NCBI GenBank assembly: GCA_000996605.1
Contig: LCOP01000002.1
Location: forward strand, 1 to 55,181
DNA length: 55,181 nucleotides
Reading direction: 5' to 3'
Source of the DNA: Parcubacteria group bacterium GW2011_GWA1_47_8
Lineage (GTDB): Bacteria > Patescibacteriota > Minisyncoccia > Phycocordibacterales > UBA1550
Shown here: positions 49 through 46,121 of the stretch, piece after piece
Numbering within the stretch: position 1 is the first letter of the stretch
Layout of the letters: each line of letters starts with the position of its first letter
Notes under the pieces: generated by a model
What the model was told of the DNA's origin: nothing
Databases searched by the model: none
Seen by the model: the letters and a program-made list of their open reading frames with translations, nothing else
Translations under genes and position numbers: made by a program

Positions 49-681
49 ATGATCAATCAGAAATGTAAAAAATGTCGTCGTGTCGGAGAGAAGCTCTTCC
101 TCAAAGGGGAGCGGTGCTTTACGCCGAAGTGCGCCATGGAGCGCAAGCCGTATCCGCCGGGCAAGCTTCTCTCTGAGCGGAAGCACCGATCTTCGGTCAC
201 GGAGTATGGTACTCAGATGCGTGAGAAACAAAAAGTGCGCAATACGTACCGCGTGAGCGAGAAGCAATTTGGGAATTATGTTAAAGAAGCGTCAGGGAAA
301 TCAGGAATTAACCCTGCCGAGTATTTGTTTGAATCGCTTGAATCGCGTCTTGACAATGCAGTTTTTCGCTCGGGCATTACACACTCGCGCTCGCTTGCGC
401 GCCAGATAGTGACGCACGGACATATCACCGTGAACGGCCGCCGCACGGATATCCCGTCACGTCGGCTCAAAGTCGGGGACGTGCTTGCAATCCGCGAGGG
501 GAGCAAGACCTCGAAACTTTTTGAGGGGTTGGGAGAGAAATTGAAAACGATCACCACGGTGCCGACATGGCTCAAGCTTGACGCAAGCAAAGGTTCAGTG
601 GTGTTTCAGGGAAAGCCGAAACCGGCACAGGGGGAGCATACGTTTAACCTTACCTCTGTTGTGGAGTTCTATAGTCGCTAG
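49..681 (+). CDS. rpsD: 30S ribosomal protein S4
   Basis: 210 aa. N-terminal zinc-ribbon-like CKKCRR...CFTPKC, a C-terminal S4 RNA-binding domain (RLDNAVFRSGITHSRSLARQIVTHGHITVNG), and alpha-operon context. Confidence 0.95.
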   Translation: MINQKCKKCRRVGEKLFLKGERCFTPKCAMERKPYPPGKLLSERKHRSSVTEYGTQMREKQKVRNTYRVSEKQFGNYVKEASGKSGINPAEYLFESLESRLDNAVFRSGITHSRSLARQIVTHGHITVNGRRTDIPSRRLKVGDVLAIREGSKTSKLFEGLGEKLKTITTVPTWLKLDASKGSVVFQGKPKPAQGEHTFNLTSVVEFYSR

Positions 682-2215: not shown

Positions 2216-2569
2216 ATGCCTATTACACCACATAAAATTGACGCAAAAGGAAAGTCCTTGGGACGTGTCGCCACGGAAGCGGCGAGCGTGCTCATGGGCA
2301 AGACATCCCCGGCATTTCAAAAGCATGTTGTTGCTGATGTGCAGGTTATTATTGAGAATGCCTCAAAGATTGCCCTTACTCCGAATAAGCTCAAAGAGGT
2401 GCACGTAAAGCTTTTCTCGGGTTATCCGGGCGGGCTCAAGGAGCGCACGCTTGCGCAAACAATCGAGAAGAGAGGATATGGCGAAATGTTCATGCGCACC
2501 GTCGGGCGCATGATTCCGCGCAATCGTTTACATAAAGAGCGCATGAAGCGTCTCGTGATCACTGATTAA
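2216..2569 (+). CDS. rplM: 50S ribosomal protein L13 (short form)
   Basis: 117 aa with GKSLGRVATEAASVLMGK and GYPGGLK motifs. Immediately followed by rpsI, the conserved rplM-rpsI pair. Confidence 0.9.
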   Translation: MPITPHKIDAKGKSLGRVATEAASVLMGKTSPAFQKHVVADVQVIIENASKIALTPNKLKEVHVKLFSGYPGGLKERTLAQTIEKRGYGEMFMRTVGRMIPRNRLHKERMKRLVITD

Positions 2570-3247: not shown

Positions 3248-3880
3248 ATGAAAAAAGAACAGGAATATGAAGAAAAGGGGGTAAAAGAAGAGGATCGCTC
3301 ACTCGGTGACACCCAAAACCTTGACACCAAAGAAGGAGATATGTATAGTGATGACGTGCAATTTGAAAATGAGGATGAAAATGTGAATGCGGCCGCTGTA
3401 CAGAAGAAGCTCCACGAAAAACTTCGGGCTTGCGAGGCGGAGAAGAAAGAATATCTTGATGGATGGCAACGCATGCGCGCCGACTTTGCAAATGCACGCA
3501 AAGAAGAAGACATCCGTCGCGGCGAATTAGTGAAATTCGCATCCGAAGGTCTCGTCGAAGATGTCCTTCCAGTTCTCGATAGCTTCACGATGGCGTTTGG
3601 CAACAAAGAAGCATGGGGGAAGGTGGACGAAAATTGGAGGAAAGGGGTTGAATACATCTATGCACAGCTGTTCTCGGTTCTCGAAGCGCGCGGGCTTTCC
3701 GAGATAGGTGCGGTTGGGGAAAGGCTGGATCCACGACTTCACATTGCGATGGAAACCGTAGAGACGAATGATGGAAATAAGGCGGATACGGTTTCCGAAG
3801 TCATCCAAAAAGGGTATCGTTTGCACAGCAAAGTTATCCGTCCGGCAAAAGTGAAATCGTTTGGGTACAACGGGGAATAA
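3248..3880 (+). CDS. grpE: nucleotide exchange factor GrpE
   Basis: 210 aa. Acidic N-terminus, then the GrpE core (YLDGWQRMRADFANARKE...VLPVLDSF...DPRLHIAM...GYRLHSKVIRPAKV). Directly upstream of dnaK. Confidence 0.9.
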   Translation: MKKEQEYEEKGVKEEDRSLGDTQNLDTKEGDMYSDDVQFENEDENVNAAAVQKKLHEKLRACEAEKKEYLDGWQRMRADFANARKEEDIRRGELVKFASEGLVEDVLPVLDSFTMAFGNKEAWGKVDENWRKGVEYIYAQLFSVLEARGLSEIGAVGERLDPRLHIAMETVETNDGNKADTVSEVIQKGYRLHSKVIRPAKVKSFGYNGE

Positions 3881-3975
3881 TTAATATAAAAATATTGAAA
3901 TAGCAAAACAATAAAGTGTTCACTTAATTATTCAATTATTAACTATTTATTATTTAATTATTAACTATCAAAACT

Positions 3976-5886
3976 ATGGCAAAAATTTTAGGTATTGATC
4001 TTGGTACGACAAATTCCGCGATGGCGATTATTGAGGGGGGTGAGCCGCGCATTGTTGAAAACATCGAAGGAGTGCGCACTACGCCATCCATCATCGCGGT
4101 TTCCAAAAGTGGCGAACGGTTGGCGGGGCTTCTCGCAAAACGCCAAGCGGTTACCAATCCGCAAAACACGTTGTTCGGTATTAAACGTTTGATCGGCCAC
4201 ACGTTTGAAGACGAGGGTGTTCAGCGTGATAAAAAGAACGCGCCTTTTGCCATCGAGAAGTCTTCCGATGGCGGCGTGATGGTCAAAATGGGGGAGCGGT
4301 CTTATCGCCCCGAGGAGATCTCGGCGATGGTGCTCCAGAAGCTCAAGCAGGACGCGGAAGCGAAGCTCGGGGAGAAAATCACCGAAGCGGTGATTACCGT
4401 GCCTGCGTATTTTAATGATTCTCAACGCAAAGCAACCAAAGACGCGGGGCAGATTGCAGGATTTGACGTAAAGCGTATCATCAACGAGCCAACCGCGGCG
4501 GCACTTGCGTATGGTTTCAACAAAAAGAAAGATGAGAAGATCGTCGTGTACGACTTTGGCGGCGGTACCTTTGATGTGTCGGTACTCGAAGTGGGTGACG
4601 ACGTCATCGAGGTGAAGTCGACCGATGGCGACGTGCACATGGGCGGTGAAGACATCGATCAGAAAATCATCCGCTATATTGCCGACGAGTTCAAGAAAGA
4701 ATCCGGCATCGATGTTTCAAAGGACGTGCTTGCACTCCAGCGACTCAAAGAGGCGGCGGAAAAAGCAAAGCACGAGCTCTCCACAACACCAGAAGCAGAA
4801 ATCAACATTCCCTTCATTACGTCAGACGCATCAGGTCCGCGACATCTCTTGCTCAAACTCTCACGCCCGAAACTCGAAGATCTCGCGCGTGAATACATCG
4901 ACAAATCAATCGAAATCACTAAGCGCGCACTCGCCGCATCACCATTCAAAATCACCGATATCAATGAAATCATTATGGTGGGAGGACAAACGCGCATGCC
5001 GGCAATCGTGAATGCGGTCAAAGAACTTTTTGGCAAAGAACCAAACCGCTCTATCAATCCGGACGAAGTGGTTGCCATCGGCGCCGCGATTCAAGCGGGG
5101 ATATTGCAGGGCGATGTGAAAGACGTTCTCTTGCTTGATGTTATTCCGCTCTCTTTGGGTATTGAAACATTTGGCAATGTGGCGACAAAACTCATTGAGA
5201 AGAACACAACCATTCCTGCATCACGTTCGCAAATATTTTCTACCGCGGCAGACAATCAGACTTCGGTCGAGATTCATGTCGTGCAGGGCGAACGTCCTAT
5301 GGCACCAGACAACAAATCTCTCGGGCGGTTTGTTCTCGACGGTATTCCGCCGGGCGCACGCGGTACCCCGCAAGTCGAGGTTACGTTTGATGTTGACGCG
5401 AACGGTATCTTGCAGGTAAAGGCAAAAGAAAAAACAACGGGCAAAGAGCAGTCGATTCGTATCGAAGCAAGCTCGGGACTTTCAAAAGACGACATTGCTC
5501 GCATGCAGAAAGAAGCGGAGCTGAATGCCACCGAAGATGCAAAGAAACGTGATCTCGCCGAGGCAAAGAATCTGCTCGAACAGCTTGTGTATACTGCCGA
5601 GAAGGCGCTTCGCGACAATGGCGACAAAGTGCCTGCGGAAGTGAAGACGGGAATTGAGGGGAAGATTGCACTCGCAAAAACGGCAAGCGGCGGCAAGGAT
5701 ACCGACGCACTTAAAAAGGCGACTGACGAACTCTCGACCGAACTTCAAAAGATTGGCGATATTATGGCAAAGAATGCCGAAGCGGCTCAAACACAGGACA
5801 AAAAAGAAGGCGGAGCGGATGATCAGGGGCCGGTTCGTGATGCGGAGTATAAGGAGGGAGATGGGGACAAAACAAAGAACAACTGA
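3976..5886 (+). CDS. dnaK: molecular chaperone DnaK (Hsp70)
   Basis: 636 aa with the Hsp70 signatures [21 protein letters not shown] and [11 protein letters not shown]. Confidence 0.98.
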
Positions 5887-5957
5887 CAACTGACAAGAAT
5901 TTTGATGTATGGCGTATCCAGTCAGATGTCAAATGTTAATTGTCATATGTTGCCCCT

Positions 5958-8900
5958 ATGGCAAAAGACTATTACAAGATACTTGTTTTTGTGTGCGCAA
6001 TTGTTACTGCTATCTTTGTGGTGAGCGGTCTTTTTGCCACTGCTTCTGCTCAGGGAATTTCTTATATGCCTTCGAACCCTCAAATTTTCGGGCATATTGA
6101 AGGCGAAGGCACTCATTTTGAAATAGAGAACAGTGATTACTTTAACATCACGCTTGATAGTTCCGAGTCTATTCGCGCACGGTTGGAATCAGTCTCGGAA
6201 ATCGTGACTATGGCGATTTACGCAAGTCTCCCTCCTGCGACTTCAACCACGGTAACGATAAGCGGTTTTTCTCCTCAAACAACCTATTACAAATACGAAG
6301 ACAGTTACCACAACTTAACCCAATTTACCACCGATGAAAACGGTGGTTATTCATACACGCAAGACATCACCGCTCCACATATCATTTTTATCCAACCGCG
6401 AAAAAGTACCAAGTTTATTCGCGACGATGCGACTGGCGGGGACTGCTCCTCTGTCGGAAATTGGAACAACACTGCAAAAACATGCACCCTAACACAAAAT
6501 GTTTTGGAAACCATTGAGATTGATTCTGATAATATCGTTTTGGATGGAAACAACTTCACTCTTTCTGGCTCACATACCGGTTCGGGCGTGTACCTCAATA
6601 GCAAATCAGGTGTCATCGTCAAAAACATGCACATCGAAAACTTCTCCTACGGAGTGAACCTGAATAACTCAAACGGTAATCGTATTGAAAATAACGATTT
6701 TGTAAACCTTGATAATCAAGGGATGGTTTTTTTCAATTCAAGCACCAATACCATAATAGGAAATACGGTGTCCCTCCTCGTTCCTTCAGCAAGGCGTCAC
6801 CAAGGATTTGTGCTCTTCGATTCTTATAAAAATATTTTTCAAGATAACACCGTCTCGTTAAACGCCCGCGCAAGCGTGTCGGGAAGGCATCAAGGTATTC
6901 TTTTATTTGACTCCAACGATAACAGCTTCGTGTCTAATGATGTTTCAGATACTTACCAAGGTGTTCTTTTCTTTGATTCATACAACAATGTATTGCGCGA
7001 GAATACCATACGGGATAGCAGTGAGGACGGACTCATGATTTTCCCTCCATCAAGTGGAAATCAAGCATCTCACAATAATTTTATTGGAAATCCGACACAA
7101 GTCATAAACTATGGTCCTGCGCAAATTTTTTCATCTCCGCTTCCGGAAGGTGGTAACTACTGGAGCGACTTCGATACTCCAGAAGAGGGATGTAGCGATG
7201 TAAATGCTGACGGTTTTTGCGACGCGCCGTATGTTTTTACGGGCGGGCAAGACGATTTGCCGTGGGTAACGCAGGATGGGTGGAAGAATTCATCAAACTC
7301 TTGCACACAAAACTGTTATTCAAACGTTTTATTTCTGCCAGGGCTTGAAGCGAGCCGGTTGTATCAGAAAGACCCAGGCTGCCTATTTTTAAATTGCGAG
7401 AACAAACTTTGGGAGCCGAACAGAAACGATGATGTGCGGAAACTTTACCTTTCCCCAACAACAGGAGAGAGTGTACACCCCGATACATACACCAGGGATG
7501 TAATTGATGAGGCGTTTGGCGTAAATATCTACAAGGGCTTTCTCGGTTTTATGGAAGGACTTGTCATAAAAGGCACTATTAAACATTTTGAAACGCTTCC
7601 CTACGACTGGCGCGACGATCAGAAAGACGTCGTCACTCGAAGTATTCGTCTTGAATCTGGATCATATGACATCGCGACACGAATAGTTGATCTTGCGAGC
7701 ACCTCTCCCACAGGCAAAGTAACACTCATCGCTCACTCAAATGGCGGATTGGTGGCAAAAGAACTTGTTGAGGATTTGAAAAGTCGTGGACAGGAGAATC
7801 TTATTGATCGTATTATTCTGGTCGCCGTACCAGAGCTCGGGACACCGAAAGCAGTTTTTGAGATGCTTCATGGTGCTGGGCCATTCTTTTTGAGTTTTCC
7901 GAGCAAAGAAGTGACTCGCGAGCTCGCCGAAAACATGAAGAGCGCGTACACACTGCTTCCTTCTCGTGAATACTTTAACCGTCTTCGTGGTCCGTTTGTG
8001 GAATTTAGCACGACAACTTCAGTAACTCAAGGTTTCCGTAACGTCTACGGTAACTCAATCTCTGATTATGATACATTGCGAAAATTTTTGCGAGGAGAGA
8101 ACGGAGCCCGCATGGAGCCACAGGCGAGTGCGGTCAATGAGCCGAATGTCCTCAAAGAAAATTTTCTCGCGAATGCTGAAACGCGTCATGCCACACAAGA
8201 TACTTGGATGCCACCGTCTGGAATTGAGGTGATTGAGATTGTCGGATTGGGACTTGATGCGCCTCGTGGCGTTGAGTATAAATCAACGAAAAAGAAAGTT
8301 TGCAGCCCATACTTTTCCGGGTGCCCTAGGATTGATGTGATAGACCCGCAACCGCTCGTTACTTCCGAGGGCGATAGCACCGTGGTGTACCCCTCGGCAG
8401 AGGCGTTGGGAGTGGAGAGGTATTATGTGGATATTTTTCAGCATAACAAGCTCGGTCAATTTAATGTCAACCGCGACCACAAAAACATCCTTGAAATCAC
8501 CCCTATTCAAACTCTCCTCACCACACTCATAAAAAATGAAGCCACGAGCACCCTTCCCTTGTACATCACGAACACCAAACCACCTCAATCTGATGCAGAC
8601 AAACGCCTCCGCATCGGCGTACACTCTCCCGTCGCACTTCACCTCTATGACTCTCTCGGTCGTCACACCGGTCCCATCACAAACCCCGACCCTTCATCCG
8701 ACCTTGATTATGCCGAAGAGCGAATCCCCAACACCTACTATTGGCAAATCGGTGAGGGGCAATATGCGGGAGCAAGCGGAGAGCAAATCACCACCATACA
8801 ACTCACGGGAAAAGACCTCGGCACATTCACCCTCGATATTGAAGAAATTACCGGTGGCACCACAACAAGCATGACTATCTACGAAGATATTCCCGTTACG

Positions 8901-9287
8901 GCAAGCACCATCGCAACCATAGAGGCGGGAGGGAATGTCGCGCCCGTACTCAAAGTAGACATTGACGGCAATGGAACCATAGACGCGGAGATTACTCCCG
9001 GCGGTCTCACTGGCGAAAATCTTGTCGGCATCTTGAAAGGGTTGGTAAAGACACTCAATCTCCCGGACAAGAAAGAAAAGCAGCTCTTTAAGAAACTCGA
9101 AAAGCTTGAAAAAGAACTTGCCAAAGAACACGAAAACGATCGCAAAGAAAAACAGAAAACCAAGGGAGTATTTAAGAATGTCATTAAACTCATCAATAAA
9201 TATGAGAAGAAAAATATTCTTTCCAAAGAAGAGGCGGGGGATTTGATAGGTATTATTGAGCAAATTAGGGAGAAGGTGGTAGAATAA
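5958..9287 (+). CDS. secreted multidomain protein: parallel beta-helix (PbH1/NosD-like) repeats + LCAT-like alpha/beta-hydrolase (lipase/phospholipase) + Lys/Glu-rich coiled-coil tail
   Basis: The ORF track gives 5940-9287 from a TTG; ATG 5958 yields MAKDYYKIL plus a hydrophobic signal ending ASAQG. Residues ~180-400 carry repeated N-x-I/V-x-x-N beta-helix turns (IENNDF, IIGNTVS, FQDNTVS, FVSNDVS, LRENTI) ending in CSDVNADGFCDAPYVF. Residues ~455-700 carry FLPGLEASRL, YDWRDD, LIAHSNGGLV and VPELGTPKA, as in LCAT/PGAP1-type lipases. Confidence 0.8.
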   Translation: MAKDYYKILVFVCAIVTAIFVVSGLFATASAQGISYMPSNPQIFGHIEGEGTHFEIENSDYFNITLDSSESIRARLESVSEIVTMAIYASLPPATSTTVTISGFSPQTTYYKYEDSYHNLTQFTTDENGGYSYTQDITAPHIIFIQPRKSTKFIRDDATGGDCSSVGNWNNTAKTCTLTQNVLETIEIDSDNIVLDGNNFTLSGSHTGSGVYLNSKSGVIVKNMHIENFSYGVNLNNSNGNRIENNDFVNLDNQGMVFFNSSTNTIIGNTVSLLVPSARRHQGFVLFDSYKNIFQDNTVSLNARASVSGRHQGILLFDSNDNSFVSNDVSDTYQGVLFFDSYNNVLRENTIRDSSEDGLMIFPPSSGNQASHNNFIGNPTQVINYGPAQIFSSPLPEGGNYWSDFDTPEEGCSDVNADGFCDAPYVFTGGQDDLPWVTQDGWKNSSNSCTQNCYSNVLFLPGLEASRLYQKDPGCLFLNCENKLWEPNRNDDVRKLYLSPTTGESVHPDTYTRDVIDEAFGVNIYKGFLGFMEGLVIKGTIKHFETLPYDWRDDQKDVVTRSIRLESGSYDIATRIVDLASTSPTGKVTLIAHSNGGLVAKELVEDLKSRGQENLIDRIILVAVPELGTPKAVFEMLHGAGPFFLSFPSKEVTRELAENMKSAYTLLPSREYFNRLRGPFVEFSTTTSVTQGFRNVYGNSISDYDTLRKFLRGENGARMEPQASAVNEPNVLKENFLANAETRHATQDTWMPPSGIEVIEIVGLGLDAPRGVEYKSTKKKVCSPYFSGCPRIDVIDPQPLVTSEGDSTVVYPSAEALGVERYYVDIFQHNKLGQFNVNRDHKNILEITPIQTLLTTLIKNEATSTLPLYITNTKPPQSDADKRLRIGVHSPVALHLYDSLGRHTGPITNPDPSSDLDYAEERIPNTYYWQIGEGQYAGASGEQITTIQLTGKDLGTFTLDIEEITGGTTTSMTIYEDIPVTASTIATIEAGGNVAPVLKVDIDGNGTIDAEITPGGLTGENLVGILKGLVKTLNLPDKKEKQLFKKLEKLEKELAKEHENDRKEKQKTKGVFKNVIKLINKYEKKNILSKEEAGDLIGIIEQIREKVVE

Positions 9288-9291
9288 AGAT

Positions 9292-9807
9292 ATGAATCAT
9301 AAAAAAATAATTTCGGTAATTTTAGTTGCCTCTCTTCTTGCGCTTGGTGGTGGCTATGTTTTTTTTGAGCCAGTCAAATTTGGTATTTGTGAATCAACTT
9401 ATTATACTTCTTATAATTTTTATAATTACTATGGACATTGGGGGGAGGGCGGGAATAATAGGGTATGGTGTAATGAATTTTTTGGCGAGGGTATCCTTTT
9501 GGCACTTCTCTGGTCGTTTCTCCCCCTCCTTCTTATCACCTCCGCTCTCTTCTTCGTCCGCCGCGAAACTTTTCTCGCATGGGCAAAATTCGCCAGCATC
9601 TCCTTTCCTCTTATACTTAGCGTTCTTCTCTATACCTACAACAACACGCCAACAGAAGGTGGCTTTGGTCTTGCGGGACTTATCTCCGACGAAATGCTTG
9701 CCACCGTTTTTCTCCCTCCGCTCTTTGTTATTGTCTCCCTCCTCATCATTGGCATAAAATCGTGGAAATTGAAGACACGAAGTAGAATAGAGAACGTGGA
9801 ATCATAA
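9292..9807 (+). CDS. small polytopic membrane protein, unknown function
   Basis: 171 aa with about 4 hydrophobic helices and a Tyr/Cys-rich loop. Starts 5 nt after the preceding stop. No recognisable family. Confidence 0.6.
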   Translation: MNHKKIISVILVASLLALGGGYVFFEPVKFGICESTYYTSYNFYNYYGHWGEGGNNRVWCNEFFGEGILLALLWSFLPLLLITSALFFVRRETFLAWAKFASISFPLILSVLLYTYNNTPTEGGFGLAGLISDEMLATVFLPPLFVIVSLLIIGIKSWKLKTRSRIENVES

Positions 9808-16115: not shown

Positions 16116-16943
16116 TCAATGTTTAACTGTCTCAGAATTTCCTGAATTTACGAAGACAACGTTATCACCTTTTTTAAATTTGAAATAGCCCGGTGCGGCG
16201 AAAACAATGGAAGCGGAAGGCTCGCAGTCGCAGATGTTGCGATAGTGTAAGTACATTTTTCGTATCTCGGATTCTGATAAGCGAATTATGGTGTGTCCGC
16301 GCCGTTCGTATCCTTCTATTGCTTTTGTGTAAGGTGACCACGGAGTCGAGAGCTTATCGGCGAAACTGTCATAGTTTGCCTTGGGGCCTATTCCAATTAT
16401 TTTTGCATTGTGACTGGACCTGTATAATTGTTCTGCCATGCCGACGAAGACTCCGCCGCTTCCAAGAGGAACAACAATGTAGTCGACGTTCGGCAATTTT
16501 GCGAGAATTTCATTGACGACACTGCCATACGACTCTTCATATCCGTTGGTGACATCCCAGATTACTTCATCATCACGTTCGCGGGCGAATGAAACAATCT
16601 CTTCAGGACGAAGAATTTTGTCTTGAAGATTGATTTTGATTACTTGATATGCGACATCAGAAAGTTTCTTATATATTTCCTCACTAACAGTTTTACCCAC
16701 GATGCAAGTAACTTTAATTCCTGTTTCGCTTATTAATTTTGAAAGACTGTACCCGTTATTACCAGAGGTAATCAGCGTCAGTTTGTCAACGCCGAGGCGG
16801 AGGGCTTCTTTCACGATAGTCTCGTTACGGCGATCTTTTATTGTCCCATATGGGTTGACGCTCTCATCTTTGATGTACATGTTAACACCTGGGTATTTTC
16901 GCGAGAGTGCATCAATTTTTGTGAGGGGAGTAATAGTGCTCAT
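16116..16943 (-). CDS. fold-type II PLP-dependent enzyme (cysteine synthase/threonine dehydratase superfamily), specificity unknown
   Basis: 275 aa. NPYGTIKDR contains the Schiff-base Lys context, with TSGNNGYSL and PLGSGGVFVG phosphate-binding loops. The start overlaps the upstream regulator stop (ATGA). Confidence 0.75.
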   Translation of the reverse strand: MSTITPLTKIDALSRKYPGVNMYIKDESVNPYGTIKDRRNETIVKEALRLGVDKLTLITSGNNGYSLSKLISETGIKVTCIVGKTVSEEIYKKLSDVAYQVIKINLQDKILRPEEIVSFARERDDEVIWDVTNGYEESYGSVVNEILAKLPNVDYIVVPLGSGGVFVGMAEQLYRSSHNAKIIGIGPKANYDSFADKLSTPWSPYTKAIEGYERRGHTIIRLSESEIRKMYLHYRNICDCEPSASIVFAAPGYFKFKKGDNVVFVNSGNSETVKH

Positions 16944-17719
16944 TTTTTCTTTTTAGAAAGATTATTGAGGCGCGTAGCCTCCTTCCATGAAAGTTCAAAC
17001 GCTTTTTTGAACGCATCGGCAAGCTCCTTGCTTTCGATGATAAGAGAAAATTTTTCAACAAGAGACATAAAAACAATCTTATTGTCGTAAATGTTTATTT
17101 CCGGAGAAAAACTATATTCCCCCGCCGGCACAAGCGCCGATTCGCGGGATTCTTCTTTGTCGTAAGCTGTTCTTTGGCGAGCCTCCTCTGTGTCAGGAAG
17201 AATTGATCGTATGGCAATACCTTTGTCGGCACGTCTTTTGTAATAATCAGGGAAATAGCCGGGAAGTGCTTTGTGCATATTCTCAATCGATGCATACGCG
17301 CGTATCGACTCGCTCGATGTTAGAGTATCTTCATAAGCGCTGATAAGTCCCTCCTTGCCTTCATAGAGCCGTACTTTCGGACGAGGTTTGTTTCCACGAT
17401 AGCGCGATTTGAGTTCCGGAAGAACAGAGTGTATTTGCCCTACAAGATTTTGATATCGTTTTGTTTCCTCTTCAGCTAATTGCAAGAGGCGTTCGGGAGG
17501 AGAGGCAACGTATTTAGTGATGCTATCCTCTTCTTTGTTAATGCTAATGAGGCCTCTTTTTTGAAGTGCTTCAATAATAACATACACCGTGCTTCGGTTG
17601 ATTTGCGACTGGTCGGCAATTTGGGTTGCTGTCGCAGTCTCAAGCTCAAGAAGCGCAAGGTACACAGCAATCTCTTTATCCGAAAATTTAAAATTTTGTA
17701 GTACTTTATCAATATCCAT
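16940..17719 (-). CDS. TrmB-family transcriptional regulator (winged HTH + C-terminal effector-type domain)
   Basis: The ORF track starts at TTG 17737; ATG 17719 gives MDIDKVLQNFKFSDKEIAVYLALLELETATATQIADQSQINRSTVYVIIEALQKRGLI, a typical TrmB N-terminus. Confidence 0.75.
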   Translation of the reverse strand: MDIDKVLQNFKFSDKEIAVYLALLELETATATQIADQSQINRSTVYVIIEALQKRGLISINKEEDSITKYVASPPERLLQLAEEETKRYQNLVGQIHSVLPELKSRYRGNKPRPKVRLYEGKEGLISAYEDTLTSSESIRAYASIENMHKALPGYFPDYYKRRADKGIAIRSILPDTEEARQRTAYDKEESRESALVPAGEYSFSPEINIYDNKIVFMSLVEKFSLIIESKELADAFKKAFELSWKEATRLNNLSKKKK

Positions 17720-17910
17720 GTTGTTAGCTCTTAACAAATAGCTTTACCCATAAGAATACAGGAAGTTATCCTGTTGTCAACTATTAACAACAAATCACTA
17801 ATTTTGTGGATTCAACTTCACATATCACTGTTATTTTCTAATACATTCGGACATTTTTTGACACATACGACTAAATAACGATGTTGATGTTCTTTTTGCG
17901 GAGGTCCATT

Positions 17911-17988
17911 ATGAAACTATCATATACTGATCCCAATTGCCCGGATTGTCCTGGCGACCCCGGTGATCCTCCTTGCGGCGGTGAGTAA
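17911..17988 (+). CDS. unannotated 25-codon sORF: MKLSYTDPNCPDCPGDPGDPPCGGE
   Basis: ATG at 17911, preceded by GGAGG (17900-17904, 6-nt spacer); TAA at 17986-17988. The coding stretch is GC-rich in an AT-rich spacer, and an intrinsic terminator begins 14 nt downstream. Too short for the ORF track. Confidence 0.5.
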   Translation: MKLSYTDPNCPDCPGDPGDPPCGGE

Positions 17989-18002
17989 GTAACCTTGCCA
18001 TG

Positions 18003-18043
18003 AGGGCGCCACTTTTTATTTATGAGTGGCGCCCTTTTAATTT
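18003..18043 (+). terminator. intrinsic terminator/attenuator between the sORF and the prolyl oligopeptidase gene
   Basis: AGGGCGCCACT (18003-18013), an 11-nt loop, AGTGGCGCCCT (18025-18035), then TTTAATTT. Confidence 0.65.
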
Positions 18044-18073
18044 CATTTGTGTATGTTTTTATCGCTGTGCTCA

Positions 18074-18082
18074 TGATAGTAT
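18074..18082 (+). promoter_or_regulatory. candidate extended -10 box TGATAGTAT upstream of the prolyl oligopeptidase gene
   Basis: TGnTAnnAT pattern, 14 nt before ATG 18097 and downstream of the terminator hairpin. Confidence 0.35.
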
Positions 18083-18096
18083 ATAAATTAATATAT

Positions 18097-20163
18097 ATGA
18101 ACTTCCCAAAAACAAAAAAAGAAGAAGTAAGCGATGAAATTTTTGGTATTAAGGTTGCTGACCCATACCGATGGCTTGAGAACACGGAAAGCACTAACGT
18201 ACAGACATGGTTGGATGAACAGAACAATTATACTCGGTCGTCCCTAGACGAGATTCCCGGAAGAGAAAAACTACGTAAGGAATTTGAGCATTTATTTCGC
18301 GAAGAAACAATAGGATTCCCTATCCCTAAAAATGGGCGCTATTTTTATATTAAAAGGAAGGCCAATGAGGACATTGGGGTACTTTATGTAAAAAAAGGGC
18401 TGATTGGAGAGCCTCGAGTGTTAGTTGACCCGAACATCATTTCTAAGGAAAAAGGTTCCGCGGTGAATCTCGCGGGGTATTCGATATCCGAAGATGGAGC
18501 GTTTATTACCTATCGTTTGTCGGAAGCGGCAAATGATATGGCGAGCTTGTACGTTATTAATGTTGAGACAGGAGAAAAACTGCAAGACGTTATCCCCGGG
18601 GAATTCTACCCGACCACTGGATCATGGGCTGTTGATAATACCGGGTTTTGGTATACGCGGAGAAAAGACGGCACTCCCAAAGGAGAAGAAAAATTTCACA
18701 AGAAGGTCTTTTACCATAAACTAGGAACGCCTTTTTCTGATGACGAACTTGTGTTTGGAGAATCTTTTGCAAAGGAAGATTATGTGGGGGCATCAGTAAC
18801 CCATGGCGGACGTTATCTAAAGGCAGGGGTCTCTATCTCTTCCGAAGCATATCGTCGCGGGGAAGTTTATCTTCTTGATCTGGCAAACCCTCAAGCTGGC
18901 TTTGTCCCTATTGTCAAAGATATCAAAGGAGACGAGGACATCTTTTTCCAAGTAGTCATTCATAGAGATTTTGCGTACGTTCTCAGTAATTTTAAAGCTC
19001 CAAAATGGAAAATCGAGAGAGTTGCCATTCCTGACATACAAAAAGGCATGGAAGCATGGGAGGTTGTTATCCCCGAGGATAAAGACCGAACGATTGAAGA
19101 CCTCGTGCTTGCCGGCGAGAAGCTTTTTGTTCTTACCTTGGAGAACGTATATTCAGTGTTGCGCGAATATTCTTTGGAGGGGGAGATAACACGAGAAATC
19201 CCGCTTCCAACGCTTGGCACAGTGAACCGTGCATTAGCAGAGCCTGAAGGGAAAGAGGGATTTTTCAGTTTTGATTCGTTTGCGTATCCCGATACTGTCT
19301 TTCGGATTGATTTTAATACTGATGTGGTTTCTGTATATGAAAAACAAAAGATTACCGTTGATACGTCTGATTTTGTTTCAGAACAGGTCTGGTGTACTTC
19401 CAAAGATGGTACGCGTGTGCCGATGTTTCTGGTTTATAAAAAAGGGCTGGCGATAAATGGTAATGCTCCGACGGTGATGTATGGGTACGGAGGTTTCAAT
19501 ATCAGCAAAACCCCCAGTTTCATGAAGCATATAATTCCGTTTATAGAACGGGGAGGGTTGTATGTTATTGCCAATATTCGGGGTGGTGGTGAATTCGGAG
19601 AGGAGTGGCATAAAGCGGGTACTAAGAGACAGAAACAGAACGTATTTGACGATTTTATTTCTGTAGCAAAATGGTTGATAGAAAACAACTATACAAACTC
19701 AAACCGCCTCGCTATCGCCGGGGGGAGTAATGGCGGATTGCTTGTGGGTGCTGTGATGACACAACGCCCGGAGTTGTTCAGGGCGGTCGTTATGTCTGTT
19801 CCTGTTGCTGATATGCTACGGTATCATTTATTTCACGGAGGGAGACACTGGATTCCTGACTATGGCAGTGCAGAGGACGAAGATATGTTCCCGTATCTTT
19901 TAGCATATAGTCCGTATCACAACGTGAAAGATGGCACACCGTATCCCTCGACAATTATTATAACCGCGGATCAAGACGATCGCGTTCACCCGGGGCAGGC
20001 ATTCAAAATGGCGGCACGACTACAAGAAACAAATATTTCTACCAATCCAATACTCCTTCGTGTCGAGAGAAAGGCGGGACATGGTGGTGCCGTCGATGTC
20101 TCGCGGTATATTAATAAGGCAGTGGACGAGTGGAGCTTTGTTTTCAAAGAGCTGGGAATGTGA
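18097..20163 (+). CDS. prolyl oligopeptidase (peptidase S9A)
   Basis: The ORF track starts at 18022, inside the terminator loop. ATG 18097 gives MNFPKTKKEEVSDEIFGIKVADPYRWLEN, a canonical POP N-terminus. It has a beta-propeller region, catalytic Ser GGSNGGLL, Asp DQDDRVHP and His AGHGG. Confidence 0.9.
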   Translation: MNFPKTKKEEVSDEIFGIKVADPYRWLENTESTNVQTWLDEQNNYTRSSLDEIPGREKLRKEFEHLFREETIGFPIPKNGRYFYIKRKANEDIGVLYVKKGLIGEPRVLVDPNIISKEKGSAVNLAGYSISEDGAFITYRLSEAANDMASLYVINVETGEKLQDVIPGEFYPTTGSWAVDNTGFWYTRRKDGTPKGEEKFHKKVFYHKLGTPFSDDELVFGESFAKEDYVGASVTHGGRYLKAGVSISSEAYRRGEVYLLDLANPQAGFVPIVKDIKGDEDIFFQVVIHRDFAYVLSNFKAPKWKIERVAIPDIQKGMEAWEVVIPEDKDRTIEDLVLAGEKLFVLTLENVYSVLREYSLEGEITREIPLPTLGTVNRALAEPEGKEGFFSFDSFAYPDTVFRIDFNTDVVSVYEKQKITVDTSDFVSEQVWCTSKDGTRVPMFLVYKKGLAINGNAPTVMYGYGGFNISKTPSFMKHIIPFIERGGLYVIANIRGGGEFGEEWHKAGTKRQKQNVFDDFISVAKWLIENNYTNSNRLAIAGGSNGGLLVGAVMTQRPELFRAVVMSVPVADMLRYHLFHGGRHWIPDYGSAEDEDMFPYLLAYSPYHNVKDGTPYPSTIIITADQDDRVHPGQAFKMAARLQETNISTNPILLRVERKAGHGGAVDVSRYINKAVDEWSFVFKELGM

Positions 20164-20205: not shown

Positions 20206-22017
20206 ATGTCCGACACAAACGACACCGAGGAAGCCTCGACGGAGCAAAAACCTGAGATAAGGAAAGGCCTACGGGCCATATGGCGCCACGTCCGGCCGTT
20301 TAAGAAAGAACTTGTTGTTCTAGTAGTTTTGGGCGTGGTTTCGGCGATAGCAAATGGATTCGTCCCATACGTTACGGGGCGCTTTTTTGATACACTCATC
20401 AATCTTTCGCAGGGAACAGAAACGTTTACGGCGAGCACATTTCCTCTGTGGGTGGTTTTGCTTGGTGCGTGGGTCTTGGTTCAGCTTGTGGCAAATAATG
20501 TTGATTGGGTCATGGATCGCATGAGAAGGCGGGTAGATATTGGTGTGCATCTCGGTATTCAAACGACGGGGTTTAAACACCTTCTTCATGCGCCCATGGT
20601 GTACCACAAAAGCGTACATATAAATGGGGTAATGCAAAAAATCAGTACTACCGGGTGGCGAGTTTCAGCCATTGTGGGTACAGTCGTGAACATAGCTCCG
20701 CAATTCCTCAGTATCATCATTGGACTTACTCTTGCCGCAAGTATCAATACATTTCTCGCCGGCATTTTGGTTGTAGGGGTGCTTTTGTACATTGCGCTTT
20801 TGTTGAGAATCCTTGCGCCTATCGCGGCGATAGATGCGGCGGCGCACAAGTCGTGGAGTGAGGGTTGGGACGATGTGGCGCAAGCGATAACGCAGATCGA
20901 GAGCGTGAAACAGGCAACTACCGAAGAGTACGAGAGTCAAGCGGTACAGAAGTCATTAAGGGAAAGAACTTATAATTTATGGGCACACATCGAACGCAAC
21001 TGGAGCAACGTCAGTTTCTTTCAACGCATGATCGTGCTCGTAACGCAGTTTACCGTGTTTATCTTTTCAGTAAAATTTATTTCAAACGGCACGATTACCG
21101 TCGGCGAGCTTGTCGCACTCAATGGCTATGCACTGATGTTCTTTGGTCCCTTTGTATCACTCGGACATAGCTGGCAAACGATTCAAAACGGCATCACGGT
21201 GGCGGCGCAGGCCGAAGAGATTTTTGATGGAGAAGAAGAAAATTATGTACCCGAGGGTGCAATAACCCCCGAACATTTTTCGGGCGAGGTTGTCTTTGAG
21301 AATGCTTCTTTTGCATACGGCGAAGACCAGCCGGACGTTCTTGCGGGGGTTGATTTCAAAGTTCATGCGGGGCAGGTGGTTGCATTTGTCGGGGAGTCGG
21401 GAGTAGGCAAGAGTACCGCCATTTCCCTCATCTCCGGATATTATTTCCCGACGAAGGGTCGTGTGCTCGTCGACGGTGTAGATACGCGAAAGCTCGACCT
21501 CATAAATCTCCGCAGAAATATTGCGATGGTCCCCCAGGAGGTAGCGCTTTTCAATGATACGATTAAATCAAATATTTCTTATGGTTCTCCGGATGCATCC
21601 GCGGAGGATATTGCACGTGCTACCGAAGAGGCGCATGCGCGTGAGTTTATTGAAGCACTCCCGCTCAAATACGAAACGATTGTTGGTGAGCGCGGGATTA
21701 AACTCTCGGTAGGACAGAAGCAACGCGTCTCTATCGCCCGAGCAATCTTGCGTGACCCCAAGATCCTTATTCTCGATGAACCAACGAGCGCGCTTGATAG
21801 CGAAACCGAACGCAAGGTGACGGAGGCTTTGGAAAAATTAATGAAAGGGCGCACGACGTTCATCATCGCACACCGTCTTTCCACAGTACGCAAAGCAGAC
21901 CGCATCTTTGTTATTGAAAAAGGGAAGATTGTGGAAGAGGGAAGTCATGACGAACTCATGAAAATCGAAAATGGAAACTACCGCCACCGCTACGAGCTTC
22001 ATATCGGGTTGGTGTAA
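20206..22017 (+). CDS. ABC exporter, fused permease/ATPase half-transporter with non-canonical signature motif
   Basis: 603 aa. Walker A GESGVGKST, signature LSVGQKQR (Gly to Val at the second Gly), Walker B ILILDEPTS, H-loop IAHRLST. Confidence 0.9.
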   Translation: MSDTNDTEEASTEQKPEIRKGLRAIWRHVRPFKKELVVLVVLGVVSAIANGFVPYVTGRFFDTLINLSQGTETFTASTFPLWVVLLGAWVLVQLVANNVDWVMDRMRRRVDIGVHLGIQTTGFKHLLHAPMVYHKSVHINGVMQKISTTGWRVSAIVGTVVNIAPQFLSIIIGLTLAASINTFLAGILVVGVLLYIALLLRILAPIAAIDAAAHKSWSEGWDDVAQAITQIESVKQATTEEYESQAVQKSLRERTYNLWAHIERNWSNVSFFQRMIVLVTQFTVFIFSVKFISNGTITVGELVALNGYALMFFGPFVSLGHSWQTIQNGITVAAQAEEIFDGEEENYVPEGAITPEHFSGEVVFENASFAYGEDQPDVLAGVDFKVHAGQVVAFVGESGVGKSTAISLISGYYFPTKGRVLVDGVDTRKLDLINLRRNIAMVPQEVALFNDTIKSNISYGSPDASAEDIARATEEAHAREFIEALPLKYETIVGERGIKLSVGQKQRVSIARAILRDPKILILDEPTSALDSETERKVTEALEKLMKGRTTFIIAHRLSTVRKADRIFVIEKGKIVEEGSHDELMKIENGNYRHRYELHIGLV

Positions 22018-22382: not shown

Positions 22383-23419
22383 ATGGCACTCGCAATCGGT
22401 ATCGTCGGGCTTCCGAACGTCGGCAAGTCAACCTTGTTTAACGCCTTGACCAAGAAATCGGTCCCCGCGGAAAATTATCCCTTCTGCACCATCGACCCTT
22501 CGGTCGGTGTTGTTGCGGTGCCTGACCCACGCCTCTATCACTTGGCTTCATTTTCAAAAACAAAAAAGACGATTCCCGCGGCGGTGGAATTCGTCGACAT
22601 TGCCGGTCTCGTAAAGGGTGCATCCGAAGGCGAGGGCTTGGGTAATAAATTTCTCGCACACATTCGTGAAGTGGATGCGATCCGGTGTCGGATATTGAGA
22701 CGATTAATCTCGAGCTTATCATTGCAGACCAGCAGACTGTAGAGAAACGCCTCGCTAATATTGAGAAGGACGTGAAGCGCGGCGACAAGGAAGCAGTAAA
22801 AGAAAAAGAAATTTTGCAGAAAATTTTTGAAGCACTTGGGCAAGGGAGGCTTGCGCGTACGGTGATGCTTATGGACGAGGAAGCGCCTTTAGTACGCACA
22901 CTGCATCTCCTTACCATGAAGCCGATTTTATACGTGCTCAATAAAAAGGCAGGAGGGAAAAATTTGGATGAAATAAATGATCTGCGGTACACGGCGCTCC
23001 TTGAATATCTAAAAACACTTGGTGCGCACTATGTGGTAGTGGATGCAGGCGTGGAACAAGAGCTTTCGGCATTTGAAGGAGAAGAAAAAGAAATGTTTCG
23101 CGCGGAGCTTGGCTCGAGGAATGACGGTATCAATGACCTTATTACCAAAGGCTACGAGATGCTTGGGCTTGAAACATATTTTACTACCGGGGAGGTGGAA
23201 ACGCGTGCATGGACTATCAAAAAAGGGAGCACGGCACCGGTTGCAGGTCAGGCGATCCACACGGATTTTAAAGACAAGTTCATCCGCGCGGAAGTTATTT
23301 TCTGGAAAGATTTGCTTGATGCAGGTTCATTTGCAAATGCAAAGGAGAAGGGGCAGTTACGAATAGAAGGAAAGGAGTATATAGTCAAAGACGGCGATGT
23401 GATCGAGTTTCGGGTGTAG
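22383..23419 (+). pseudogene. ychF: ribosome-binding ATPase YchF, disrupted by an internal out-of-frame deletion
   Basis: ORF 22383-22742 carries G1 GLPNVGKST and G3 DIAGLV up to [11 protein letters not shown] 22685-23419 resumes in another frame at (D)[16 protein letters not shown] and runs to the TGS-like C-terminus (IVKDGDVIEFRV). About 19 residues (xHVVRCFxxxxIxHVxGxV in E. coli YchF) are missing at the junction. Confidence 0.8.
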
Positions 23420-44648: not shown

Positions 44649-46121
44649 TCATCTCCAGTATGCTGTGCTCGGGTCATTGATGCGGAATGATACCGAAAAG
44701 GGGATGCTCTCTCGTTGCGCGATGTTGGTGATCGGTAAGTCAATCTCGGTCAAAAGAGGGGAGTCGAGAAGAGATTTTTTAAAGAGATTGAGTATTTCGC
44801 GATTGCGTGCGGTACCAGTGAGAGACATTTTTTCTGTGATAGACGGTGCGGAAAAACTCGAGACGGAGATTCCGTCGATAATACGCCTGCTCACCTCGTC
44901 GAGGACTCCACTCCAAATCGGTGTTCCGTCGAGGATTACTTGTCCGGTCGCGGTGAGTTCGTTCACGTGTTCAATCCACGCCTCCTTCTCCAACAATTCT
45001 GGAGAGATAGCTGAAGCAGAGAGCGTCGCGATAGTCCGCTCTGCGTTTTGTGCGAGCGAAAACATAAAGAAATACGCGCCTAAAAATACCGCCATAAAAA
45101 ATACCGATACACCGATTGTCATGTTGCGAATGAGTGCGACGACGGTTGCTGCTTTTTGGTAGGCGTACGCTTCTTCGGTGCCGACGGGCAGTAAAGAAAT
45201 GAGATTGTCTGTCCCCTCGGGCATCTTTCCGCGGATCGCGGCGCCGAGCGGTATGAGCCATTTTGACGGTGGCTCGGTGCTCTCGGTTGCCCCTCTATAC
45301 TCATCGCGAACGCGAGCTTGGACAAGAGAAGCTTCCTCGACGGTTTTTTTCATGTCTGCCTCAAGGGCGGTTTTTATGTTCGCGACCTCCGCGGAAATTT
45401 TTTCTTCGGGGACAAAGAGTCTGGGGAGCGCGCGCGAAAAACGGAGCACGCCGTCTCTCAAACAAAAAATAGTTGCACCGTCGGGAGTCTTTTTAGTGAA
45501 GAGCGTTGTTTGTTCCGGTTCTGCTTTGATCGCGCGGGCGATACTTGAGAGGTGAGACTCGAGTGCGAGAATTTTGATTCCGGCGCGCTCGATGGCATCG
45601 ACGTATCCTTGTGCGACACTTTTAGGGATTGTGGAGAGGAGGATCTCGTTCATTGGTGAATTCCCCGGGGTGCGTTCCCAGTCGAGATATACATCCTCGA
45701 CTTTCATAGGGAGTTGGAATCCGATGGCAAGACGCATTGCTTCGGAGAGGCGTGTGCCGTCAACGGTCTTGGGAAAAGAGAAAACGCGCGAGTAGATATT
45801 GTCATCGGGGATAGCAACGACAGCATAGTCGGTGCCAAGCTTTGCTTTCAGTCGAATTTCTTTTAATGTTTTACTGAGGAGATCGACATCAACAACAACG
45901 CCATCTGCAATAATATTTGCGGCTATTGGCTCTTCGATGAGCACGATTTCCTCCTTTGTGTTGGTATTTTTGTCAATTGTCCGCAAAGCGGTGTTAGTTG
46001 TCGGTTGTTTTCCCCTTCGCCCTTTTTTGTGCGAACGGAAAAAGGCGATACGAATCACCGAGTCGCTAATCTCGATACCCGCGACGCGTTTTTCTTTGGT
46101 GAGGAGGTTTAGGATGTTCAT
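44649..46121 (-). CDS. pilM: fused PilM (actin-like ATPase) - PilN type IV pilus assembly protein
   Basis: 490 aa. N-terminal VAGIEISDSVIRIAFF and an ASKHA-fold-like region, a TM segment (GVSVFFMAVFLGAYFFMFSLA), and a PilN-like C-terminal domain. Confidence 0.75.
   Translation of the reverse strand: MNILNLLTKEKRVAGIEISDSVIRIAFFRSHKKGRRGKQPTTNTALRTIDKNTNTKEEIVLIEEPIAANIIADGVVVDVDLLSKTLKEIRLKAKLGTDYAVVAIPDDNIYSRVFSFPKTVDGTRLSEAMRLAIGFQLPMKVEDVYLDWERTPGNSPMNEILLSTIPKSVAQGYVDAIERAGIKILALESHLSSIARAIKAEPEQTTLFTKKTPDGATIFCLRDGVLRFSRALPRLFVPEEKISAEVANIKTALEADMKKTVEEASLVQARVRDEYRGATESTEPPSKWLIPLGAAIRGKMPEGTDNLISLLPVGTEEAYAYQKAATVVALIRNMTIGVSVFFMAVFLGAYFFMFSLAQNAERTIATLSASAISPELLEKEAWIEHVNELTATGQVILDGTPIWSGVLDEVSRRIIDGISVSSFSAPSITEKMSLTGTARNREILNLFKKSLLDSPLLTEIDLPITNIAQRESIPFSVSFRINDPSTAYWR

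Follow-up and report, generated by a model that had tools for sequence, protein, structure and literature searches.

A conserved proline- and cysteine-rich micropeptide gene directly upstream of a prolyl oligopeptidase gene in Patescibacteria

Directly upstream of a gene for a family S9A prolyl oligopeptidase (POP), a 55,181-nucleotide (nt) stretch of DNA from Parcubacteria group bacterium GW2011_GWA1_47_8 (contig LCOP01000002.1, positions 1 to 55,181; hereafter, the window) carries a small open reading frame (sORF) of 25 codons that, judging from the substitutions between it and two homologs, is a translated coding gene whose peptide is under purifying selection. We refer to this sORF and its homologs as type 1. 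Our leading interpretation, held tentatively and at slightly less than an even chance, is that the gene specifies a separately expressed micropeptide that is functionally coupled to POP in trans, most likely as its substrate. The peptide may be the first genetically linked natural partner, and probably the substrate, of a bacterial prolyl oligopeptidase. To our knowledge, the physiological substrates and roles of these enzymes are largely unknown, and a conserved sORF that was found in these data only before POP genes represents a concrete candidate partner that is cheap to test.

The sORF product, MKLSYTDPNCPDCPGDPGDPPCGGE, contains six Pro, three Cys, and four Asp in its 25 residues. Its start codon is preceded by a GGAGG Shine-Dalgarno (SD) sequence, whereas an SD core of 4 nt precedes the start in only 1 of the 42 long ORFs of the window. 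The GC content is 0.62 at positions 17930-17989, as compared with 0.27-0.33 in the spacer around the sORF. Past the stop codon, at a distance of 14 nt, begins the stem of an intrinsic-terminator-like hairpin, whose arms, AGGGCGCCACT (18003-18013) and AGTGGCGCCCT (18025-18035), form 11 Watson-Crick pairs (13 pairs by RNAfold), and the T tract TTTAATTT comes next. Among 66 hits that combine an SD-like motif with a short ORF on either strand of the window, this sORF ranks first by its downstream fold (-24.7 kcal/mol). A second in-frame ATG at 17881, upstream of the sORF start, would give a 35-residue version, which has no SD sequence. The first-pass annotation of the window, made from the letters alone, had described the sORF and its composition, the GGAGG with a 6-nt spacer, the GC-rich coding stretch, the hairpin 14 nt after the stop, and an imperfect copy of the 3' arm of the hairpin (TGGCGACCC, 17952-17960) within the frame, and all of these are present as described; its claim that the SD sequence is exceptional in the window also holds. 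Judging from the long genes of the window, the host organism hardly uses SD sequences, yet the sORFs before POP genes, here and in the related loci described below, are all strongly SD-led.

Table 1. Positions of the features discussed in the text, in the window unless another locus is named
Feature	Position	Strand	Remarks
Shine-Dalgarno GGAGG	17900..17904	+	Spacer of 6 nt to the sORF ATG; read directly
sORF (type 1 micropeptide gene)	17911..17988	+	ATG to TAA, 25 codons plus stop; product MKLSYTDPNCPDCPGDPGDPPCGGE
Pro8 codon	17932..17934	+	Invariant Pro closing the variable N-terminal part; candidate POP cleavage site, proposed from sequence
Conserved core NCPDCPGDPGDPPCGG	17935..17982	+	16 codons; 13 or 14 of 16 residues match L150 and L153
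Intrinsic-terminator-like hairpin and T tract TTTAATTT	18002..18043	+	Stem 18003-18013 / 18025-18035
Extended -10-like motif TGATAGTAT	18074..18082	+	14 nt before the POP start; consensus match; possible separate POP promoter
S9A prolyl oligopeptidase (POP) gene	18097..20163	+	688 residues; ATG 61 nt past the hairpin
MsbA-like ABC exporter	20206..22017	+	Directly downstream of POP; Pfam and NCBIfam matches; module membership uncertain
TrmB-family regulator	16940..17737	-	Divergently transcribed; PF01978, 5.6e-17; not kept in homologous loci
L171 type 2 sORF	188-238		Product MDDPNKDTKPHLPRPR
L136 type 2 sORF	3865-3933 (sister contig L066, 9-77)		Product MRRDGPNDARPPERPPHLPRPR
L164 type 2 sORF	2427-2501		Product MNTYVCREDPEKDGGDHLPHPRPR
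L001 type 2 sORF	5872-5949		Product MGIRMKDSGDILPHPTPPSPPPPGR

POP loci for comparison were fetched from genome and metagenome collections (160 loci), with 13 more obtained through exact-protein look-ups, and all AT-rich loci were passed through a filter that called for (i) an SD-like motif, (ii) an ORF of 10-45 codons, (iii) at least four Pro, and (iv) a hairpin after the stop codon. The filter recovered two clear type 1 homologs, one in locus L150 (3839-3928; peptide MNIISYAGPGEGTCPDCPGDPGDAPCDGG) and one in locus L153 (3808-3906; peptide MNAKPGVCFGGTCPDCPGDPGDPPCDGEVFLD), and the type 1 family, as used in this analysis, comprises these two loci and the window. Contigs that are near-identical to the window (L161-L163 and L168) come from the same population, the next POP relative being 71% identical. 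The sORF is identical in all of them, which left no within-species drift to compare.

The three type 1 peptides share the core CPDCPGDPGD(P/A)PC(G/D)G, and 15 columns of their alignment are invariant, among them those of Pro8, the three Cys, and the stretch CPDCPGDPGD. Besides Pro, three Cys, three Asp, and three to four Gly are conserved in the 16-residue core. The core DNA differs at 10-12 of its 48 positions per pair, with 7, 8, and 11 differences at third codon positions; between L150 and L153, 12 nt differences entail a single amino acid change. When equal numbers of changes were placed at random, as few amino acid changes arose in 97, 5, and 0 of 20,000 trials, which corresponds to simulated probabilities of 0.005, 2.5e-4, and <5e-5 for the three pairs. 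The flanks of the core are ∼42-57% identical in a forced alignment, which is about the level of unrelated sequence. Synonymous drift in relatives was the check on the reading frame that had been proposed with the first description of the sORF, and the frame is kept in L150 and L153, with nearly all differences synonymous. Because substitutions in the core are almost all of this kind, we regard the sORF as translated and its peptide as the object of purifying selection.

The signals around the frame are conserved in place rather than in sequence. SD, ATG, and stop are present in all type 1 homologs, with the SD sequences AAGAGGTG and GAGGAG of L150 and L153, respectively, at the matching place, and the same order of elements is found in all three loci: SD, sORF, 13-16 nt, hairpin, T-rich run, 25-60 nt, and the POP start. 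The hairpin sequences of L150 and L153 are unrelated to that of the window, yet they are stable and equally placed. Spacing within this layout varies: the core ends 3, 3, and 7 codons before the stop in the three loci, and the distance from the Pro-Pro codons (Ala-Pro in L150) to the hairpin, by hand count, is roughly 28-40 nt and differs among them.

The POP gene of the window is full-length, and its product matches PF02897 (Peptidase_S9_N; 9.3e-84, residues 6-416) and PF00326 (Peptidase_S9; 1.7e-58, residues 473-687), thus having both the N-terminal β-propeller and the C-terminal α/β-hydrolase domains of family S9. The first-pass annotation had likewise called an S9A prolyl oligopeptidase here, starting 61 nt past the hairpin. 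The GGSNGG nucleophile motif, DDRVHP, and AGHGG are seen in P0001, a protein 100% identical to the window POP, and putative catalytic roles of Ser, Asp, and His in POP can be assigned from family membership. The window derives from metagenome contigs of Rifle groundwater (PRJNA268031). The closest named relatives of the window POP are found in Zambryski-, Yanofsky-, and Sungbacteria and in the 'Patescibacteria group', which makes the patescibacterial origin assumed in the first-pass annotation reasonable. POPs of L150 and L153 belong to a clade that is also patescibacterial (Pace-, Campbell-, Kaiser-, Yonath-, and Nomurabacteria), and they are 75% identical to each other, whereas either is only 37% identical to the window POP.

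Despite this distance, the type 1 sORF lies directly upstream of an S9A POP gene in all three loci. The sORF-POP pair is flanked in the window by genes for the TrmB regulator, a pyridoxal phosphate enzyme (PALP), and ATP-binding cassette (ABC) exporters; in L150 by dnaK-dnaJ upstream and by a ThiF-like/nitroreductase pair (split Rv1355c-like) downstream of POP; and in L153 by an ABC exporter upstream of the sORF, a pilin-like gene, and, 2.2 kb downstream, a radical S-adenosylmethionine (rSAM)/SPASM gene. Because these other neighbors differ among the three loci, the conserved association is with POP alone, which is the only conserved neighbor of the type 1 sORF across them.

Several of the flanking genes were considered as further members of a module. 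An ABC exporter stands near the sORF in the window and in L153, but none lies within 4 kb in L150, and its standing as a conserved partner was left uncertain. A thiazole/oxazole-modified microcin (azoline) reading of L150 was rejected as a shared trait of these loci, since the ThiF-like and nitroreductase-like genes are halves of an Rv1355c-like protein and no YcaO is present. The stretch in question (6091-9681), right after POP, holds a ThiF-like and an Acg/nitroreductase-like gene with a weak PaaK-like adenylating ligase between them, and it looks like a split Rv1355c-family protein with an inserted ligase. The rSAM/SPASM gene of L153 (8282-9352), which is related to anaerobic sulfatase and peptide maturases, was also set aside: it scores below all NCBIfam cut-offs, lies 2.2 kb off, and is missing in the window and in L150.

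Across the AT-rich loci (893,672 nt on each of two strands), the filter has a background of 11 hits. At this rate, the 200-nt stretches upstream of POP genes should hold ∼0.1 hits; we found 7 independent cases there. The sORF is nevertheless far from universal. Another 14 Patescibacteria-type POP loci are without an sORF, so that roughly one in three of the examined loci has one, and POPs without it include some that are 69-71% identical to that of the window (L081 and L166) and others that are 83-88% identical to that of locus L164 (L165, L169, and L172). As about two thirds of the patescibacterial POP loci lack it, the sORF is an accessory to POP, with fast turnover, and not an obligatory partner. 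Two observations had been named in advance as telling against the sORF, namely, a broken frame in homologous loci, or its absence from loci that keep the POP gene; the frame is intact in L150 and L153, whereas the second situation is the case in about two thirds of the loci. GC-rich hairpins followed by a T-rich run also occur shortly before POP in sORF-free loci (L165, 2440-2490; L005, 5925-5950), and these may be terminators of upstream genes or remnants of a lost sORF module.

In four loci and one sister contig, the place directly before POP is taken by sORFs of a second kind, type 2, which are unrelated to type 1 (Table 1). These are SD-led, have 16-25 codons and no Cys, and carry PHLPRPR, or something related to it, right before the stop codon. 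The PHLPRPR codons of L136 and L171 show five differences, all of them synonymous (22 of 20,000 simulations), and the stop codons differ as well. A stable hairpin is present in all type 2 loci at a place matching that of the window, with the stem starting 0-9 nt past the stop codon. The POP ATG comes 47-51 nt past that codon and adjoins the end of the T tract. Peptides of both families are 16-32 residues long, contain at least four Pro, and have their first Pro at residues 4-10. Homology between the families was considered and not adopted, as only a weak DP(N/E) motif is common to them and their DNA is not alignable; they were treated as separate. Neither family tracks the POP tree: the window POP is 62-70% identical to the type 2 POPs of L001, L164, and L171, and type 1 also precedes the distant POP clade of L150 and L153, against the POP phylogeny. 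In a type 2 locus (L136, 763-3792) as well as in a type 1 locus (L150, 604-3718), dnaK-dnaJ stands immediately upstream of the sORF-POP pair, the two POPs being 32% identical.

The type 2 C terminus, (R/K)P(P)HLPRPR, comes near PPYLPRPRPP, the core of oncocin and PR-39, as checked against their published strings. Beyond this likeness, the sORF peptides belong to no defined family; what they do resemble is a known kind, either the POP-paired short ribosomal peptide or the leader peptide before a terminator. No database family matches the peptides of either type: searches of Pfam and NCBIfam returned nothing at E ≤ 10 except one insignificant FhuF_C match, and the best match in the PDB (6k5z, galactose-1-phosphate uridylyltransferase) was not significant (E = 8). 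A concatenate of the three type 1 peptides had no match in a library of 5.8 billion proteins, and a degenerate DNA pattern of the core had none in viral contigs. The 35-residue extended ORF matched only a Sushi-like repeat protein, 14 times, in a library of 1.84 billion proteins, and these matches were discarded as spurious. No paper with these motifs or with a POP-linked sORF in these bacteria was found in the literature searched, and the family, structure, and literature searches together agree with the initial statement that no system with this layout has been described.

To assess how translation of the sORF might bear on the hairpin, we recomputed the RNA folding ensemble with a ribosome footprint masking each sORF codon in turn; the model is thermodynamic and not kinetic, and all promoter and terminator calls are pattern- and energy-based. 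Neither folds nor simulated footprints revealed an anti-terminator in any sORF-to-POP region, including 17850-18100 of the window, and no helix competing with the window terminator appeared in the minimum-free-energy structure or in the ensemble. The window terminator kept a pairing probability of 0.97 with the footprint at every codon. Even a ribosome on the stop codon leaves it unaffected, because the stem starts 13-14 nt past the stop. Type 2 terminators behave differently, as a ribosome modeled on the stop lowered their probability from 0.58 to 0.25 in L136, from 0.69 to 0.58 in L164, and from 0.95 to 0.83 in L171. Two proposals of the first-pass annotation find no support here: TGGCGACCC does not act as a competitor for the terminator arm, as the terminator stays at 0.97 in the footprint folding, and a structural switch driven by stalling at Pro codons is at odds with the missing anti-terminator and with the varying distances from the core to the stop and to the hairpin.

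The two families also differ in their promoter signals. In every type 1 locus, the stretch from the hairpin to POP holds an extended -10-like motif, a match to the consensus (TGATAGTAT in the window, TGTTAATAT in L150, and TGTTAAGAT in L153); none of the four type 2 loci has one there, and a stricter promoter scan lists no plus-strand promoter at 18074-18082. Type 1 POP genes may have a weak promoter of their own, and the arrangement suggests that the sORF and POP of the window are largely separate transcription units. For type 2, the pattern scan places a sigma-70-like promoter 36-105 nt ahead of the sORF, with none from the stop codon to POP; type 2 POP genes must therefore be transcribed through the hairpin.

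Four features lead us to favor a peptide that acts in trans: (i) Cys, Asp, and Gly are conserved in it, and not Pro alone, a pattern that, going by the alignment, is not explained by a pure sensor of Pro codons; (ii) at 16-32 residues, the peptides fall within the size range of POP; (iii) a Pro at residues 4-10 ends the variable N terminus in each of them; and (iv) the type 1 gene looks independent and highly translated, with a terminator of its own. The link to POP, which persists at 37% POP identity, and the second Pro-rich family in that slot also count in favor of this reading. Family S9A POPs accept only peptides of up to ∼30 residues and cut after Pro. In the mechanism that we propose, the short, terminator-capped transcript would give a large molar excess of peptide over POP, and the peptide, being acidic, 25 residues long, and rich in Pro, Cys, Asp, and Gly, would fit within the size limit of the enzyme. 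POP would cut at Pro-X bonds, first after the invariant Pro8, releasing the conserved Cys-containing core, whose three invariant cysteines (CxxC...C) might then bind metal or form a disulfide. The product could be exported, could serve in signaling, or could simply undergo POP-controlled turnover.

The nearest precedents for a short ribosomal peptide paired with a POP-family S9A enzyme are the MSDIN/α-amanitin peptides with POPB (GmPOPB), the orbitides with PCY1, and omphalotin with OphP. GmPOPB removes a 10-residue leader ending in Pro and then cyclizes at a second Pro, and 5 residues left at the C terminus are enough for it in vitro (PMC5648786). The amanitin precursor of Galerina has 35 residues. 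An invariant Pro stands at the end of its leader and a second Pro at the end of its core (PMC5648786). In the type 1 peptides, the invariant Pro8 precedes the core and (P/A)P (Pro-Pro in the window) precedes an invariant Cys, but three to four further Pro lie inside the core, which leaves more than one possible assignment of the junctions. While a short precursor gene linked to a POP-family enzyme is present in the window, L150, and L153, as in the amatoxin-type systems, those systems are eukaryotic (fungal or plant) and have a dedicated POP paralog, a long recognition tail, and a hypervariable core. In type 1, it is the core itself that is conserved, the tail has 4-8 residues, several Pro are internal, and POP is an ordinary ortholog. 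Judging from its orthologs without an sORF, the window POP is not a dedicated paralog, a comparison that takes in, of the genome itself, the 55 kb of the window.

A second kind of precedent comes from operons of microcins and of peptides that are made on the ribosome and modified after translation (RiPPs), such as mccA-mccB and nisA-nisB. In these operons, a tiny precursor gene has a strong ribosome binding site, and a terminator before the enzyme genes yields an excess of precursor transcript. The sORF-POP pair shares their order of precursor, terminator, and enzyme. However, RiPP and microcin clusters carry dedicated modification, export, and immunity genes, whereas the sORF loci conserve only a POP of housekeeping type.

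Several points weigh against the favored reading. The substrate relation, together with the cleavage site and the function of the peptide, is one that we infer from adjacency and composition. Cleavage within the core, which has five to six Pro, would also be expected of POP, unless the core is shielded by its structure, by metal binding, or by its Asp-Pro and Pro-Pro contexts. The three type 1 loci, the only ones from which type 1 is known, have neither a modifying enzyme nor an exporter as a conserved feature, and POP is an ordinary ortholog of POPs that have no sORF; as POPs 69-71% and 83-88% identical to those with an sORF do without it, POP does not need the peptide. The separate promoter, too, is to be read with care, since the DNA is AT-rich, and the chance of a -10-like motif in all three type 1 loci, ∼0.005, is a rough hand estimate. 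Furthermore, an SD sequence, a short ORF, a terminator, and a gene, in that order, is also the classic layout of a cis-acting leader. The proposal that the peptide is tied to POP, which the first-pass annotation had put forward, is supported by the comparison of loci, in that the frame is conserved and POP is the sole conserved neighbor, but no modifying enzyme is conserved alongside and POP is an ordinary one.

The alternative with the most in its favor, which we consider possible although rather unlikely, is that the sORF encodes a cis-acting leader or arrest peptide. Slow or abortive translation, depending on prolyl-tRNA, EF-P, or a small ligand, would then hold the leading ribosome near the stop codon or not, and its position would determine the formation of the terminator and, with it, the amount of transcription that reaches POP; the released peptide would be functionless. 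The order of SD, 16-32 codons, terminator, and gene is canonical for such elements, and DPP and PPG motifs and D/P-rich N termini are known stalling or destabilizing sequences. The trpL, hisL, and pheL attenuators are built in this way too, with ∼15-30 SD-led codons that favor one amino acid, an intrinsic terminator behind them, and the regulated gene last. In the sORF loci, the enriched amino acid, Pro, matches the gene, which encodes a Pro-specific peptidase. The type 1 sORF departs from the attenuators in that (i) it has no mutually exclusive anti-terminator, (ii) its peptide is conserved beyond the regulatory codons, (iii) the window POP may have a promoter of its own, and (iv) POP is catabolic, not biosynthetic.

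Arrest peptides offer closer parallels, above all for type 2. A conserved nascent-chain sequence, as in TnaC, SecM, and MgtL, is present in the sORF, a feature that is not specific to any one family, and arrest peptides are typically conserved near the C terminus. In TnaC, a leader of 24 codons, conserved residues at the C terminus arrest the ribosome at the stop codon, which blocks nearby Rho-dependent (not intrinsic) termination and induces a catabolic enzyme. Type 2 is TnaC-like in having its conserved PHLPRPR at the stop, 0-9 nt before the hairpin, whereas in type 1 the core lies 3-7 codons from the stop and the hairpin 13-16 nt from it. A leader ORF already described as sensing Pro codons, MgtL of E. 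coli, is comparable in size and composition. In the MgtL/MgtP systems of Salmonella and E. coli (mgtA/mgtCBR), the 17-codon MgtL ORF has an acidic, Pro-rich N terminus followed by LPRRR, and EF-P is needed to translate its Pro codons, a step that controls transcription downstream. MgtL is resembled by type 2 peptides such as MDDPNKDTKPHLPRPR, while the window peptide does so only in its D/P richness. MgtL acts within a long 5' leader, through Rho and through alternative structures of the leader RNA; the sORF loci, by contrast, have a simple intrinsic terminator and no alternative fold. Intrinsic terminators are known to be suppressed by EF-P-dependent ribosome progress through polyproline (PMC5021804).

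On the evidence of the loci themselves, a leader or arrest peptide fits type 2 well and the window poorly. In type 2, POP would be read through the hairpin, with the sole promoter upstream of the sORF in four loci, and the stem is close enough to the stop for a modeled ribosome there to weaken the terminator. In type 1, on the other hand, no alternative pairing exists, the window terminator is indifferent to every ribosome position, and the spacing from the core to the stop and from Pro-Pro to the hairpin varies. Moreover, 25-60 nt and an extended -10-like motif part the hairpin from POP, and three invariant cysteines are unexpected in a sensor of Pro. A translation-coupled role is possible in general. 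If the regulatory reading were true, the sORF would be a proline- or translation-sensing leader for a peptide-salvage enzyme, built without the usual anti-terminator. Patescibacteria are generally thought to be short of most amino acid synthesis pathways.

It is improbable, in our estimate, that the product is a bioactive or toxic Pro-rich peptide that resists general peptidases, acts on a target in the cell or in a host, and has POP as its antidote or turnover enzyme, which would limit its lifetime or shield the producer. The likeness of the type 2 C terminus to the core of oncocin and PR-39, antimicrobial peptides that bind in the ribosomal tunnel, would speak for such a role, except that it spans only seven to eight low-complexity residues, and the window peptide is acidic (net charge ∼-4), unlike the cationic proline-rich antimicrobial peptides. 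A terminator between the peptide and enzyme genes would provide a high ratio of peptide to enzyme, and the sORF is patchy among close POP relatives, as is typical of accessory conflict modules. However, the peptide lacks an export signal, and these loci have neither an exporter nor an immunity gene in common.

We give an equally small chance to a stand-alone metal- or redox-binding protein (CPDC...C) that adjoins POP through co-regulation or shared inheritance. The CxxC and a third Cys are invariant, CP.CPG is like the zinc-site motif of the 6k5z uridylyltransferase (the nonsignificant match at E = 8), and the sORF appears to have its own SD and terminator, with POP possibly having its own promoter. 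This view does not account for the adjacency to POP, which persists at 37% POP identity while all other neighbors change, nor for the occupation of the same slot by the Cys-free, Pro-rich type 2; no Pfam, NCBIfam, or PDB family match was obtained either.

That the sORF is a chance ORF within a GC-rich structured RNA, or a gene remnant in which only the RNA matters, is close to refuted: although the patch is GC-rich, 17850-18100 folds somewhat better than shuffled sequence (z = -2.66), and the predicted fold allows pairing of the GGAGG with the CCUCC in the codons of Pro20-Pro21, that pairing is absent in L150 and L153, the window has no Rfam match, the substitution pattern is that of protein-coding DNA, SD, ATG, and stop are kept in all homologs, and 10-12 differences in 48 nt argue against recent transfer of one sequence.

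Returning to the peptide coupled to POP in trans, a broader version, which we regard as speculative and unlikely as a whole, would see in these loci minimal two-gene peptide systems of Patescibacteria, in which a housekeeping-type POP matures or controls both the Cys-containing type 1 core, released or cyclized, and the oncocin-like type 2 peptide. If this were true, a type 1 core released or cyclized head-to-tail at its flanking prolines would bring to bacteria a counterpart of the POP chemistry of the amatoxin type. The type 2 product would then be an endogenous, oncocin-like peptide able to act in the ribosomal exit tunnel, and POP would set its level, whether in trans or in cis, the latter at the stop codon of the peptide's own frame. 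Apart from POP, the loci indicate that conserved micropeptide genes of Patescibacteria are overlooked by gene callers, being below the usual length cut-off and without a match in the libraries of 5.8 and 1.84 billion proteins. They are also of interest for translation, in that a strong SD sequence is kept for one tiny gene in an organism that otherwise is nearly without it.

Other small frames around the sORF were examined as well. A 118-codon ORF on the minus strand (17871-18227) runs opposite the sORF and hairpin and the first part of POP; this ORF is probably spurious, having no Pfam match and overlapping conserved coding sequence of the other strand. In the gene tables of L162 and L163, a 30-residue antisense ORF is called here in place of the real sORF. 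Elsewhere in the window, 16 codons at 46114-46164, led by a perfect AGGAGGT motif and located upstream of a histidine kinase gene, form a second SD-led sORF; it was judged a chance occurrence, since it overlaps the first codons of a PilM-like gene on the minus strand (44649-46121).

Finally, comparison with the near-identical contigs brought out two irregularities of assembly or strain. The YchF-type GTPase gene of the window (22383-23419) is split into overlapping ORFs (22383-22742 and 22685-23419), whereas L161 has it as a single gene of 365 residues; small indels occur around 22680-22708, and the split is an assembly or strain difference. The first 97 nt of L168 are the reverse complement of positions 18140-18236 of POP, which marks the start of that contig as an inverted-repeat assembly chimera and explains the odd N terminus of P0001.

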